From an uncultured delta proteobacterium (GTDB lineage: Bacteria; Desulfobacterota; Desulfobacteria; Desulfobacterales; JAHEIW01): a stretch of DNA of 64,000 nt. Each line of letters opens with the position of its first letter. The first letter of the stretch is position 1. Below, piece after piece: positions 45,001 through 51,000 of the stretch. The stretch is from the NCBI GenBank assembly GCA_963706575.1, contig CAVPNL010000014.1, positions 64,001 to 128,000 of the forward strand, written 5' to 3'. Position numbers: made by a program.

Positions 45001-48000
45001 TTTACGATGCCTACCAAATTCAAAGAGGCCCTTGAATCCGGTAAATTTGTAGTCACCAGCGAGGTGGCACCCCCCAAGGGGACAAACCTTGAAAAATTTG
45101 AACACCACATTGACCTGTTAAAAGATAAGGTCGACGCCATGAATGTCACCGACCACCAGAGCTCGGTGATGCGCTATCCTTCTCTGGGTGGCTGCCTTAA
45201 GGTCAAAGAAGGAGGCGGAGAAGTCATTTTACAGATGACCTGCCGGGACCGCAACCGACTCGCTTTGCAGGCCGACCTTCTTTTTGCATCCTATATGGGC
45301 ATTCAAAACGTATTGTGTTTAACCGGGGACTCGATCATCCTGGGTGATCACAAAGACGCCAAAAGTGTTTTTGACCTGGATTCCAGCCAGCTGCTGGAAA
45401 CCATCCGAACTCTGGAAAACGGCAAAGATCTTGGCGGCAACGATCTGGACGGTGCGGTTTCATTCTGCGCCGGTGCCATCGTAACGCCTGAAGCTGATCC
45501 GCTCGAACCGCAACTGATCAAATTCGAAAAAAAGATCGAGGCCGGCGCCGAATTCATTCAGACCCAGGCCGTTTATGACCTTGATAAGTTCAAGGAGTTT
45601 ATGGATTACGCCCGGCAGTTTAAAACAAAAATCCTGGCGGGTATAATTCTGCTGACATCGGCCCCCATGGCGCGCTTCATGAATAAAAACATCGCCGGGG
45701 TCTTTGTCCCACAGGATTTAATCGATGAAATGGCATCAGCACCTAAAGGCCAGGCCATAACCAAAGGCATCGAAATCGCCGGACGCATGATCAAACGCAT
45801 CCATGAAGAGAAGATGTGCGACGGCGTGCACATCATGGCCATCGGCAAAGAGGAACTGGTGCCGGATATCATGCAGGCCGCCGGCCTAGTTTAAATTGAG
45901 GAGTGGAGCGGTTCTCAACGTCAGGCCCGCGCAGGCGGGCATCCAGTCATGAAATAAACAGTTCTGGATTCCCGCCTGCGCGGGCCTGACAAGCTTGAAA
46001 AGAATAAACTCTCCAACCGCTGAGTTTAAATTAAAAGCACTCTCATGTTGCGCACTTTATCCAGTTGCCTGTTAGCCTATCGGAAAATCTTTCCACCCTA
46101 TAACCTCTTTACACTTCAGCCACTTTTTTGCTATTTAGAGCCAGACCACAAAACCAAAACTCTATTCATGGTGAGAAGATGATTGCAAAAATACAATTCA
46201 GAAATTCGGTTGTCATCGGCTTGCTTATGGTTCTGATAATATTAGCAGGCTTTCCGGCAAGCCTGTTCGCTCAAGATGCCCAATCGGCGAACTCTTTAAA
46301 AGTTGCACTACTGCCCATTTTAGATACCCTGCCCTTCCACGCCGCCCAGGCCAAAGGCTATTTTGACCGCTATGGTGTTTCCGTCACAGGTGTGCCGGTA
46401 GGCAGTGGTCTGGAAAGAGATCAACTCATGCAGGCCGGCGCCATTGACGGCATGCTCAACGAAATGGCCACGACGGCCAATTTCAATCGCGAACGGGTCC
46501 AGGTCCAGATTATTTTATCTGCCCGTAAAGCCTATCCGCATTATCCCCTGTTTCGTATTTTGGCGGCACCCGGCAGCGGCTTAACCTCCCCGAAAGATTT
46601 AAAAGGGATTCCGATCGGCGTCTCTAAAAATACCATCATTGAATACGTAACAGACCGCTTGCTGGCGGCCAATGGGTTGACCCCGAATCAGATTGTAAAA
46701 AAATCCATTCCGGTCATACCAGAGCGATATCAATTACTATTACAGGGCCAGGTAAAAGCCGCCACCCTGCCGGATCCACTGGCCAAAAGCGCCCTTGAAG
46801 CCGGCGCCGGTGTCGTGATCGACGATTCAGCACATCCGCAATACAGTGTCAGCGTTTTGAGCTTCAGCATTCAGGCTTTAGAAAACAAAGCAGATACGGT
46901 TCGACGGTTTATCAAGGCCTGGAATCAAGCAGCGCAGGATATCAACGCCGATCCCGAAGCACATCGCCGCCTTTTGCTTCAAAAAATCCGGGTGCCTAAA
47001 AACATTCAGCAAATTTACCGTATTCCGCCGTTCCCCGTTCGGGAGGTGCCCAGTGTCGAACAATGGGCAGATGTGATGAAATGGATGCTATCAAAAAAGC
47101 TGTTGAAGGCACCACTTCCGTATAAAGAATCCATTACCACCCAATACCTGCCATGAGGGCCTGAGGGAGAAATAGGTAAAAAAATTACTATCCGATGATT
47201 TCAATTAACGATCTAACCTTTGCCTACAGCGGGCAACCGCCTTTATTTCAAGATTATTGTTTGCATGTCAACCGTGGTGAGGCACTTTCAATCATCGGTC
47301 CTTCCGGATGCGGCAAAACAACCCTGCTATATTTGCTGGCCGGCTTGCGCCACCCCCAATCCGGCAAGATAATTATCGGCGACAAACCGATTTCCCGCCC
47401 CCGGCCGCGCAGCGGGCTGGTGCTGCAGGATCACGGCTTATTGCCCTGGCAAACGGTAAGAGAAAATGCCCGCCTGGGGCTTACCATCTGGGGATTTTAC
47501 GGATCAGACGGCCGGCACGCCCCGGCAGACGAGAAGCTGGTTCCAAACCAAGCCGATCAACGAGTCGATGACTGGCTCAAAAAACTGGGGATCGAGGGTC
47601 TGAAAAATCAATATCCGCTGCAACTATCCCGCGGGCAGCGCCAACGCACAGCCATCGCGCGCACGCTGGCGATGCGACCGGATTTACTTTTGATGGATGA
47701 GCCTTTTTCAGCCCTGGATGCCCCCACCCGTGAGGATCTGCAAAACTTCATCGTCACGTTACACGATGAATCTGATTTAACCTATATCATCGTCACCCAT
47801 AACATCGAGGTCGCCGTTGTCATGGGCAAAAAAATTTTGGTATTAAAGAAAGGCTGCAATCAAAAGGCTCAAATCATGGACAATGCCTGTGCCGGATTCA
47901 CCGATGGCCGCATGCAGGCTGAGTTTCAAATGCAATGTGAAGATTTGCGCAAACTTCTAGGCTCAATGACATGAGACGCAGGTTAAACATACGCGCAGCC

Positions 48001-51000
48001 CTCATCGGGCTGTTAATGTTTTTTGCCATCTGGCAACTGCTGGCCTGGATCATCCACCGACCCATCATGCCCTCACCGCTTCAGGTGCTTCCGATATTCG
48101 GAGCCTCCTTATTCGGCGACCTGGGGATTCACTTTTTAGCGAGTACCGGACGTGTGTTGGCTGCCATCGGTCTGGCGGTTGTCACTGCGGTACCCATCGG
48201 ATTGGGTCTGGGTCAGGTTCCAAAAGTCAATCGCATCTTTGCCCCCCTGATTGCCATCGTCTATCCGATCCCCAAAATTGTGTTTTTGCCGGTCATCTAT
48301 GTTCTGATGGGCATCACCGATATTTCCAAAATTTTTTTAATAGCGATTATTATTTTTTTCCAGATTCTGGTCGTTGTCAGGGATGAAGCCGCAAATCTGC
48401 ATCCGGAATTGATTCTGTCGGTGCGCTCGCTGGGTGCCGGCCGCCGGGCACTATTCCGCTATGTTTACTTTCCGGCATCGCTGCCGGCAGTCCTGACAGC
48501 CCTGCGCGTCTCCGCCGGAACCGCCATTGCGGTGCTGTTTATCGCCGAACAATCTTTAACCACTTACGGTTTGGGATATTATATCGTTGTCGAAACTTAT
48601 CAGGTGTTGAGATACCCAGAGATGTATGCCGGCATCCTGGCCATGAGCCTGCTGGGTTTGGTGCTTTATTTTATGATCTACAATATGGAACTGAAGGTAA
48701 ATCGCTATCGAGGGGAAGAACACAATTAAATGGAGGGATCGACGGAGCTTATACCTTTCAAGTTTGTCATTCCCGCGAAGCCTGTCGCCGCGCAGGTGGG
48801 GAGCGGGAATCCAGAAACATGGCCTGGATACCCGCCTGACGCGGGTATGACGGTAATAAAGGCTCCCTGGCTCCTGCTATTGATATGATCGAAAAAAACT
48901 CTGGGAACATTTCAAAAATGGATGCCTGGATGCTGGCGGCCCGGCCGCGCACGCTTCCGGCGGCCGTGGCGCCGGTGCTGGTCGGCACCGCTATGGCAAT
49001 CGCCGACAAGCATTTTGCGTGGCCGCCGGCCGCGGCCGCTTTAGCGGTGGCATTACTGCTGCAAATCGGTGTCAATCTGGCAAATGATTATTTCGATTAC
49101 GTCAAGGGCATCGATACCCAGGACCGTCAGGGGCCGCCCCGGGTAACGCAGAGTGGGCTTATTCCGGCCAAACAGGTAAGGGCCGGTATGCTGGTTACCA
49201 TCATTCTGAGTGTCATCCCGGGCCTCTACCTGGCAAGCGTTGGTGGCTGGCCGGTTATTTTGATCGGATTTTTCAGTTTCGGTGCGGCGCTGGCCTATAG
49301 CGGCGGGCCTTTTCCACTGGCGTCCCATGGGCTCGGTGACCTTTTCGTCTTCATTTTTTTCGGACTGGTGGCGGTGGGCGGCACCTATTACGTCCAAGCG
49401 CTGCGTTTAACGCCGATGGTCTGGTTGATGGGGGCAGTTCAAGGGCTGCTGATCACCGCCATTCTGGTTGTTAATAACCTGAGAGACATTCAAACGGATC
49501 GCCGCAGTGGCAAGCGTACCCTGGCGGTTATGATCGGTGAGCGCGGGTCCAGGATTGAATACCTGCTGTTGCTCTGCACGGCCTACGCAATACCCATCAT
49601 CCTCTGGTTGGGCGGGCGAAGTTCGGTCTGGGTGATTCTGCCGGTTTTTTCCCTGCCCCTGGCGATTTCTTTAATGCGCCTCGTCTGGTCAGATTCAAGC
49701 GGTACGATCCTAAATAAGGCGCTGGCAAACACCGCCAGATTGGCACTGATTTTTAGTTTGCTCTTATCCATCGGCCTGATTTTCTCGTTTAGGTAGAAGG
49801 GGCTCGCCCGGCAATGCACTTCGCAAAAATTGTAGATCCCTTTCAAAATCATTAAATAACAAGTGACTAAAGTGAACTAAAGCTGGAAGTGACTAAAGTT
49901 AAGGAAGAAAGATATTTTTTAGAGCTTAAATTAGATGCATCCAATACCAATTCAGTTTCCCTGGTAAACATCAAACCAAAATCACACATTTTTCCGGATT
50001 TAAAAATATATAGAGTTCCTGTCCTTCTTCCTGCGGCAGATTGTGGGGAACCTGCACCCGGATCATGGTGTCATTTACGCTGACAAAAAAGAATAAAAAG
50101 TTGCCCAGATAGGCCTTGTGGACAATCTTGCCCTTGAACACATTTTCCATGGCCTGGGGCGGTTCGGCAAATACGTCTACATCCTCGGGTCGTATCGATG
50201 CATATACTTTTGCGCCGGGTGCCGCGGCCGTGCTGTCTGGCGTCATACACACCATCTTATCGCTGAATTCGGTCCGCACGGAAACCGCATTCCGGTCCTG
50301 CAAAACTTCGATGACTTCCCCGGACATAAAGTTCATGGTGCCGATGAAATCGGCCACAAAGCGATTGGCGGGTTTTTTATAAATGTCCTGGGGATGGCCG
50401 ATTTGCACCACGTTGCCTGAATCCATGACGGCGATACGGTCCGAGATTACCATGGCTTCGGCCTGGTCGTGGGTGACATAAACCGCTGTGATGCCCATGC
50501 GTCTGACCAGGCTTTTGATTTCAAATCTTAATTCTTCTCTGAGCTTGGCATCCAGATTGCTCAGCGGTTCATCCAAGAGCAAAACTTTGGGATTGGTTAC
50601 CAGTGCGCGTGCAAGTGCCACCCGTTGTTGCTGGCCGCCGCTCAATTGAGCCGGATATCTGTCCTCCAGGCCGGCCAACCCCACCAGCTCCAATACCTGC
50701 TCGGCCCGTTCCCGGATTTTTGGCTTTGGTATCTTCTGAAGTTTCAAACCGTAAACAATATTGCTGAATACCTTCATGTGCGGCCAGACAGCATAGTTTT
50801 GGAACACCATACCGATTCCCCGTTTTGCCGGCGGGACAAATCCTTGCGATAGCATCGGCTGGCCGTCAATAATGATGTCGCCTTCTTCCGGTTTCTCCAA
50901 TCCGGCGATGCAGCGCAAGGTGGTTGTTTTGCCGCATCCGCTGGGCCCCAGCAGCGTCAGCATTTCTCCCTTGTTGATTTCAAGCTGGATGCGATTAATG

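Follow-up and report, generated by a model that had tools for sequence, protein, structure and literature searches.

A putative ABC importer of dihydroxynaphthoate encoded beside menA in an uncultured Desulfobacterales bacterium

The window, a 64,000-nucleotide stretch of contig CAVPNL010000014.1 from an uncultured delta proteobacterium, carries three genes ahead of menA whose products are likely to form an ABC importer with high affinity for soluble 1,4-dihydroxynaphthoate, used in menaquinone salvage; we infer the ligand from the genes that accompany the family. The importer probably takes up the ready-made ring from neighbours, because its family adjoins, or is fused to, finishing enzymes in many ring-less anaerobes. 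The host would be a menaquinone head-group auxotroph. A wider proposal strikes us as evenly balanced: that this is the first dedicated menaquinone-precursor importer family, that it binds both dihydroxynaphthoate isomers and was repeatedly re-paired, in one case through fusion, with MenA or the futalosine tail, and that it marks a large guild of anaerobes of sediments and digesters (sulfate reducers, syntrophs, Anaerolineae), now scored as quinone-less, that respire with menaquinone made from their neighbours' rings.

According to passages of two papers from 2016 and 2017 (PMC4746308, PMC5738691), transporters of menaquinone precursors were predicted, yet not annotated or described. A 2026 survey (PMC13386864) presents many lineages, including Chloroflexota, as devoid of quinone pathways. 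If our reading is true, genomes of sulfate reducers and syntrophs that cross-feed on quinones could be recognised by the importer family. Salvage would extend to the futalosine route, and naphthoate would be a suggested medium supplement for bringing still-uncultured anaerobes into culture. The ligand question lends itself to a direct test, as the binding protein is soluble and the ligand is on sale.

The importer–menA locus

The four-gene layout proposed in the initial annotation was borne out at 46179–49796 of the window, with all genes on the plus strand:

46179..47156, + strand: binding protein, 325 aa (NMT1, PF09084, 63.3 bits against a cut-off of 20.5)
47195..47974, + strand: ABC ATPase of the TauB/SsuB/NrtD type, 259 aa (PF00005, 117 bits)
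47971..48729, + strand: ABC permease, 252 aa (PF00528, 55 bits)
48765..48852, no strand: REP-like palindrome, a genome-wide repeat in the permease–menA gap
48885..49796, + strand: menA, predicted 1,4-dihydroxy-2-naphthoate polyprenyltransferase, 303 aa, class I clade (PRK06080.1-3, TIGR00751, tree)

The NitT/TauT-type unit is complete, having an NMT1/SsuA-fold binding protein, the cognate ATPase and a BPD_transp_1 permease, whose gene shares 4 bases with the end of the ATPase gene. The automatic annotation reads 'NitT/TauT family', and the best NCBIfam match of the ATPase is TauB (182.7, under its cut-off of 357). The menA gene (match at G000:C14:112966) is intact, with both aspartate-rich motifs present at residues 67 and 197. 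It scored 354.5 bits against PRK06080.1-3 (cut-off 264; 341 had been given earlier, likewise above it) and 233 against TIGR00751 (cut-off 102). The product is a MenA-type prenyltransferase, with activity on 1,4-dihydroxy-2-naphthoate predicted from its sequence.

Permease and menA are 155 bases apart, and the gap contains the palindrome, which has 36 blastn matches in the genome and folds at −44.6 kcal/mol. Since the corresponding gaps in relatives measure 0–17 bases or are overlaps (L045, L053, L054, L058), the palindrome looks like an insertion into the operon. A promoter scan returned 5 sites against 5.0 expected. In RNA runs, covered as contigs only, the shares were at most 0.07, mostly from relatives of 85–95% identity. 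No match was found in plasmids. A link to the upstream metV–metF operon was rejected, as it occurs at only 2 same-genus loci of 20 and metF at none of the 80 named loci.

The binding protein is a periplasmic member of an unnamed subfamily of the NMT1/SsuA/TauA/PqqT fold, and a putative dihydroxynaphthoate receptor. Its N-terminus is hydrophobic and has no lipobox Cys; by eye, this is a signal peptide, with the mature protein starting at about residue 32. The protein falls under the sulfonate-receptor cut-offs (SsuA, 65.7 vs. 163.5; TauA, 19.1 vs. 304). Its AlphaFold2 model (pLDDT 95.7) gave VIA Z values of 26.6 for TauA, 26.3 for SsuA and 26.2 for PqqT at 15–18% identity. Solved relatives do not exceed about 22% identity, a phmmer search of the PDB found nothing, and the ESM Atlas yielded generic NMT1 clusters only. 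In the subfamily alignment, S76, R80, S149, R183 and P198 are conserved in 98–100% of 125 rows. No residue of the cleft tells MenA-linked and Mqn-linked proteins apart once descent is taken into account; the candidate position for isomer specificity, E95/D95, was rejected, because it tracks descent and not the partner gene.

Quinone genes of the host genome

The host assembly (G000) is 91.81% complete and 6.39% contaminated, in 25 contigs. The quinone-using respiratory complexes reported earlier were recovered: QmoC (profile score 498, cut-off 300), QrcB (516, cut-off 440) and DsrM/K/J (C6:200438-203495), together with AprA (947, cut-off 642). Retention of menA and ubiE/menG was likewise upheld, the latter scoring 252 (cut-off 158) at a place distant from the importer. 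The late menaquinone genes are kept and the ring genes absent in this 91.8% complete assembly, in agreement with the earlier statement that neither the futalosine nor the Men ring pathway is present. PF02621 (MqnA/D; membership needs >26 bits) gave no match at E ≤ 10. The best MqnC, MenB, MenD and MenC-type matches stayed under their cut-offs (27 vs. 428, 154 vs. 343, 58 vs. 244 and 121 vs. 201 bits, respectively). Searches of this genome returned no MenF, no MqnL at E ≤ 1e-120, no MqnP by tblastn, no UbiB and no type III PKS over the cut-off.

A benzoquinone pathway was considered, since the best match of the host's UbiE is MpqE, although under the cut-off (290.7 vs. 335). It was rejected: UbiB is absent, UbiE of this type occurs order-wide, and the UbiD/UbiX pair on contig C1 adjoins PEP-utiliser genes typical of phenol-type degradation (named by eye).

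Linkage to late menaquinone genes

The order sample comprised 151 genomes, 25 of which carry the binding protein; 7 order and 2 Chloroflexota genomes with weak matches to it (78–115 bits, against at least 195 for members) were dropped before counting. Kin among the compared genomes and loci are not independent. Of the 25 order carriers, 21 have late menaquinone genes next to the binding protein: 16 a menA-type gene, 3 a permease fused to an MqnP-type prenyltransferase and accompanied by ubiX and mqnL, 1 mqnP–mqnL and 1 ubiE. Two of the remaining four have ATPase–permease–menA on a separate contig end, and two stop at contig breaks. Linkage to late menaquinone genes was also found at 24/32 loci in the rest of the phylum and in 15/23 Chloroflexota carriers, 7 more of which have ubiX only. 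In the named set it holds at 56 of 80 loci, after the removal of three weak UbiD matches from a raw count of 59. No quinone gene lies nearby at the other 24 named loci and at 8/32 phylum loci, some of them with full flanks. Five weaker NMT1 paralogues used as a control (L178–L182) have no quinone genes nearby.

The partner of the importer may be menA, a gene of a second MenA-like clade or the futalosine tail (mqnP, mqnL, ubiX), and it switched 5–6 times in a 158-row tree. One genome (G492) holds two sister copies, one with ubiE and a MenA-like gene and the other with mqnL–mqnP. The quinone gene may be upstream, downstream, convergent or fused, with three different prenyltransferases. All 17 importer-linked UbiD proteins tested exceed the MqnL cut-off (TIGR03701 > 495.9); an 18th, weakly similar and on the opposite strand (L082, 159.6), was left out of the linked count. 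The linked MqnP-type prenyltransferases all pass TIGR01475 where shown, and all fall short of the lineage-specific MqnP 'exception' cut-offs. The fusion of permease orthologues to such a prenyltransferase (G016, G042, G048) suggests a hand-over of substrate to the latter. A TetR regulator is also linked to the importer operon.

Distribution relative to the ring pathways

Importer carriers rarely own a ring pathway (5/25 in the order, 3/32 in the rest of the phylum, 1/23 in Chloroflexota). In the order, the importer occurs in 5/88 genomes with a ring pathway and 20/63 without; the five carriers with MqnA/D are G024, G093, G134, G042 and G048. The figures are 3/102 and 29/99 elsewhere in the phylum, judged by MqnA/D only, and 1/99 and 22/102 in Chloroflexota. 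MenB was found in 0/31 of the rest-of-phylum carriers. Among cultured bacteria, Bellilinea caldifistulae GOMI-1 (locus L124) carries both the importer and menA, and it gave no match to PF02621 or MenB. The ratios for MqnA/D, MenA-like proteins, the binding protein and MenB in the initial annotation hold in the larger sample: among 151 order genomes, MqnA/D occurs in 81, a MenA-like match in 62 and MenB over the cut-off in 9. MenB matches of 314–351 bits in the order are presumably BadI-type hydrolases and were treated as such; two exceed the cut-off, both in genomes without the importer. The four rows for Desulfobacterales in a text-mined quinone table could not be compared with any genome.

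A MenA-type prenyltransferase had been said to mark the genomes of the order that lack futalosine genes. This is true numerically (56 of the 62 have no MqnA/D), but the 'MenA-like' matches lump three clades of our tree: class I, an importer-adjacent MenA-like clade and a PRK05951-like clade. The full Men pathway is present in 7 of the 26 class I genomes. The PRK05951-like clade is paired with a CPBP gene and does not sit beside the importer, and most 'MenA-like' matches of ring-less Desulfobacterales fall in it and not among the importer-linked ones. The importer is absent from 43 of the 63 ring-less order genomes; in 28 of them all MenA-like matches belong to the other clade, and 13 have no such match. 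As ubiE/menG is kept in 145/151, another uptake route or ring pathway is needed there.

Proposed function

Linkage in two phyla, several gene orders, the fusion of the permease to an MqnP-type enzyme, partner switching and scarcity alongside ring pathways support the earlier suggestion of a salvage importer. Its tie to menA, and with it uptake of DHNA or a naphthoquinone, stood only in part: the link to menaquinone was recovered, but the family is not MenA-specific and is paired with the futalosine tail no less often, so that 'a dihydroxynaphthoate' describes the ligand better than DHNA alone. The periplasmic protein would bind the naphthoate in its cleft, with conserved R80 and R183 as plausible carboxylate partners, and the permease and ATPase would move it into the cytoplasm. 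MenA would prenylate and decarboxylate 1,4-dihydroxy-2-naphthoate to demethylmenaquinone, the distant UbiE/MenG would methylate this product, and the resulting menaquinone would serve Qrc, Qmo and DsrMKJOP. At mqnP–mqnL–ubiX loci, the same family would supply the futalosine tail with the 6-naphthoate isomer; the decarboxylase kept there implies that the imported ring would still carry its carboxyl group.

Alternative explanations

We consider it unlikely that the importer takes a naphthoquinone without charge, such as 1,4-naphthoquinone or menadione, that is reduced inside and then prenylated. A single ligand for MenA- and MqnP-linked copies would explain their shared cleft residues, and parts of one paper (PMC7773648) describe Desulfomonile cultures given 1,4-naphthoquinone for optimal growth, which may be analogous. 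However, the operons retain MqnL and UbiX, both superfluous for a ring without a carboxyl group, and two conserved arginines would fit an anion. A third ring pathway of another kind, with the transporter recapturing a leaked intermediate or importing an earlier precursor, appears quite improbable. No conserved unknown enzyme adjoins the importer across lineages, and the host lacks both UbiB and a type III PKS over the cut-off. The many ring-less genomes that have ubiE/menG and no importer speak for such a pathway, and recapture would be a natural role in the five order carriers with MqnA/D; recapture alone would not predict the scarcity of the importer where a ring pathway exists.

Transport of something unrelated, such as a sulfonate, a precursor of thiamine or flavin, or deazaflavin FO, with a linkage of historical origin, would be very surprising, given that the quinone link recurs with three prenyltransferases in all four arrangements and that the family scores far under the SsuA and TauA cut-offs. 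The closest folds do bind sulfonates, thiamine precursors and anions, and three MqnA/D-positive phylum genomes carry the importer with no quinone gene nearby. As many as 17 of the 80 named loci have F420 genes upstream (LLM and cofC/D/E-like, identified by eye), but in one Anaerolineales clade only. We can hardly credit a ring pathway missed through the incompleteness and fragmentation of the host assembly: none of three other genus genomes (85–97% complete) has MqnA/D, MqnL or MenB, and each ring pathway takes several genes, which often lie apart in the genome. Dihydroxynaphthoate import thus remains our preferred reading; no outer-membrane channel was identified for it.

Comparison with known systems

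The importer resembles SsuABC, TauABC, ThiXYZ (ThiY) and NrtABCD in its layout of three genes and in the type II fold of its binding protein (VIA Z 25–27, rmsd ~3 Å), but it is only 13–22% identical to them and under all equivalog cut-offs. Its neighbours are menaquinone genes, not the sulfur, thiamine or nitrate genes of those systems, and no thiamine, flavin or PQQ genes were recognised among its conserved neighbour clusters. QKGSSSH of SsuA, which we take to be the Ser-rich sulfonate-binding segment, aligns to SENTIIE of the subfamily profile, where the conserved segment differs (S-x-N/G-T-I/V-I). Identity to ThiY, RibY and PqqT (15–17%) is too low for ligand-residue mapping.

PqqT (PDB 9B1U), with the fold in common (Z 26.2), binds the soluble quinone cofactor PQQ via its carboxylates and has a proposed importer role, according to parts of its description (PMC11331073). 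The ligand proposed here differs in being a precursor that would later be prenylated. The fold is also shared with MqnD (3a3u, Z 20.9) and MqnA (Z 19.5 and 16.8) of PF02621. MqnD makes 1,4-dihydroxy-6-naphthoate. Unlike these enzymes, the binding protein has an export signal and sits with a permease and an ATPase, and transport proteins score higher.

In passages of PMC4746308 and PMC5738691, DHNA supports the growth of bacteria with menA and menG only (Lactobacillus, Prevotella, Bilophila and others), and no transporter is named for them there. The host resembles these bacteria in having lost the ring genes and retained the late ones; it differs in a linked, dedicated importer, predicted from genes alone. 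A passage of PMC4746308 restricts mqnP, mqnL and ubiX to genomes that have the Mqn pathway. Among the importer carriers, these three genes occur without mqnA/D, as a putative parallel salvage into the futalosine tail.

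The importer–menA locus and its genome

Four genes of the window, encoding a binding protein, an ATPase, a permease and MenA, look like a single operon, because the permease and menA are separated by 0–17 bases or overlap in relatives, versus 155 bases in the window. The binding protein scored far below both the SsuA and TauA cut-offs in the profile search. A promoter scan of the locus gave signals no stronger than chance.

Features of the locus (window positions)
46179–47156, + strand: binding protein, 325 aa; NMT1 match, 63.3 bits
47195–47974, + strand: ABC ATPase of the importer
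47971–48729, + strand: ABC permease of the importer
48765–48852: palindrome, a genome-wide repeat inside the 155-base gap before menA
48885–49796, + strand: menA; equivalog match of 354.5 against a cut-off of 264 bits, both aspartate-rich motifs present

Repeated intergenic elements were located in gaps at 45920–45992, 48765–48852 and about 49860–49905 (88, 36 and 46 blastn matches genome-wide). A second ABC importer (49971–54390, − strand) converges on menA and comprises a PhnS2/SfuA-like binding protein that carries a membrane anchor at its C terminus, a double permease and an ATPase; its orthologues likewise flank menA in G129, another sampled genome. The cluster at 36680–45894 (metF-like, FdhA/NuoG-like, NuoE, NuoF–GltD fusion, metV, metF) showed no linkage to the importer beyond the genus.

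The window lies in genome G000 (91.81% complete, 6.39% contamination). NCBI labels close homologues as Desulfobacterales. The initial annotation had reported no Mqn or true Men ring pathway next to retained Qmo, DsrMKJ, Qrc, menA and ubiE/menG, and our searches agreed. MqnA/D, MqnC, MqnL, MqnP and UbiB were not found in the genome, and MenB, MenC, MenD and MenF gave no profile match over the cut-off; AprA, QmoC, QrcB, DsrMKJ and ubiE/menG were matched. All three further genomes of this genus likewise lack MqnA/D, MqnL and MenB. Near the ubiE/menG gene (L008:4344–10416; G000:C15:224343–230415) are genes for another methyltransferase, an acyl-CoA ligase, a cytochrome b5/DUF2231 protein and a UbiA-family prenyltransferase with no subfamily assigned. 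Elsewhere in G000, a UbiA-family membrane domain is fused to IspH (L003:1393–3132, contig C8), and a cluster of UbiD, UbiX and PEP-utiliser genes resembles that for phenylphosphate synthase/carboxylase (L185:6005–15345, contig C1).

Linkage with late menaquinone genes

Among 151 genomes of the order, 32 binding-protein matches were obtained, and the 25 at ≥195 bits were counted as carriers. The other seven (78–109 bits) were excluded as other NMT1 proteins; no quinone genes were near the five whose loci were fetched. Late menaquinone genes adjoined the binding protein in 21 of the 25 carriers, with class I menA in 14 and a MenA-like gene in two, within about 3.2 kb. G016, G042 and G048 encode the permease and an MqnP-type prenyltransferase as one fused protein (L040:6786–8549, L041:1945–3606, L042:7817–9667), with ubiX and mqnL next. 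In G076, mqnP–mqnL is immediately upstream of the importer, and in G015 ubiE is directly 3′ of it. An additional ubiE stands between permease and menA in G052 and G056. A separate contig end bears ATPase–permease–(ubiE)–menA in G070 and G109, and the loci of G103 and G143 run into contig breaks. L168:2900–4804 of G076 joins an N-terminal region with an Lrp/AsnC ligand-binding domain to an MqnP-type domain.

In the best 80 of 583 confirmed stretches from named genomes (mostly Anaerolineae or other Chloroflexota, with a few Syntrophorhabdaceae and Deltaproteobacteria), the partner was menA in 34, a MenA-like gene in one, mqnP/mqnL in 21 and none in 24, many of the latter near contig ends and some with full flanks. 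Of 23 carriers among 201 Chloroflexota (two weak matches dropped), 15 adjoined menA, mqnP, mqnL or ubiE, seven ubiX only, and one lay at a contig end; some loci (L195, L200) held the full run tetR–mqnL–mqnP–ubiX–binding protein–ATPase–permease–ubiE. One Chloroflexota clade (L202–L204, L206, L207, L240, L241) had ubiX, binding protein and ATPase, with permease, mqnP and mqnL unmatched within about 6 kb. The phylum sample (n = 201) gave 32 carriers; in 32 loci from the 31 besides G000, the partners were mqnP in 15 (nearly always with mqnL), ubiE and/or a MenA-like gene in eight, menA in one and none in eight, three of these on short contigs. All 17 importer-linked UbiD proteins tested passed the MqnL cut-off. 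A FastTree tree with 158 rows shows five to six switches of partner, and two sister importer copies in G492 have different partners.

A TetR-family gene, a candidate naphthoate-sensing regulator, often heads the operon (L043, L067, L200, L214, L226; 27 of the best 80 of 583); none adjoins the window copy.

Distribution and MenA clades

Carriers were scarce among genomes with a ring pathway in three samples and many families (11 outside the order): 5/88 with MqnA/D or strong MenB versus 20/63 without in the order (Fisher p = 3e-5), 3/102 with MqnA/D versus 29/99 without in the phylum (p = 1e-7), and 1/99 versus 22/102 in Chloroflexota (p = 2e-6), all p-values overstating the significance since related genomes are not independent. 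The importer was carried by none of seven strong-MenB order genomes, and MenB was over the cut-off in 0/31 phylum carriers. The 99 Chloroflexota include the unpublished G181 and G316; the outcome is unchanged without both.

The earlier proposal that a MenA-type prenyltransferase marks futalosine-less genomes needs correcting. TIGR00751 matched 62 of 151 order genomes, 56 of them lacking MqnA/D, but a tree shows that the proposal lumped three clades (class I, importer-linked MenA-like and PRK05951-like), and of 26 class I genomes 17 have the importer, seven the Men pathway and two (G065, G081) neither. A CPBP/Rce1-like membrane protein gene follows the PRK05951-like gene in 20 of 22 weak-class loci fetched, overlapping it at L146:6750–8260 and in L147–L163, L165 and L176. 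These loci are mostly from Desulfobacterales without MqnA/D, and the pair may represent a second route, either of quinone salvage or of tail remodelling. In G000, the PRK05951-like gene has been deleted in place (C6 near 846700–846850).

Candidate ligand

The only need common to MenA and MqnP/MqnL that outside supply could meet is the naphthalene head group. MqnL and UbiX are kept where MqnA/D is absent, which points to an imported ring carrying a carboxyl group. We regard the system, with good confidence, as a putative importer of the menaquinone head group; dihydroxynaphthoate is its probable, if slightly less secure, ligand. In PMC4746308, 1,4-dihydroxy-6-naphthoate is the proposed starting point for the MqnP/L/M steps, and PqqT, which shares the binding protein's fold, can hold a quinone carboxylate (PMC11331073).

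Against the head-group reading stand importer copies lacking quinone-gene linkage, F420-type genes upstream of the importer in one Anaerolineales clade, and five MqnA/D-positive order carriers. Two of these five have the permease–MqnP fusion, where a recapture role is likely. The other three form genus g25 (G024, G093, G134), which has importer and menA and no MqnL match; MqnL was unmatched (E ≤ 1e-120) in 22 of 81 order genomes with MqnA/D. The alternative that a third pathway makes the ring in ring-less lineages is kept alive by the other ring-less genomes of the order. Weak-class genes alone occur in 28 ring-less genomes and no MenA-like match in 13, so that import accounts for about one third of the ring-less genomes; ubiE/menG is present in 145 of 151 order genomes.

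No paper found in the full-text literature, whose coverage stops short of subscription journals, names this transporter. It is a real, conserved system, an ABC importer of known type with a probably new substrate class. A head-group importer would answer a stated open question on menaquinone-precursor transport, and the assignment is cheaply testable.

Binding-protein fold

The binding protein belongs to a broad unnamed subfamily of 266 clusters (50% identity, E ≤ 1e-30). Its structure was predicted with a pLDDT of 95.7. Residues S76, R80, S149, R183 and P198, invariant or nearly so (98–100% of 125 rows), may, judging by the fold, line the cleft; K replaces R80 in the MenA-like (IIa) clade. 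The model shares the fold of TauA, SsuA, PqqT and ThiY (Z 25–27, identity 10–18%), and its likeness to MqnD and MqnA is more distant (Z 17–21).
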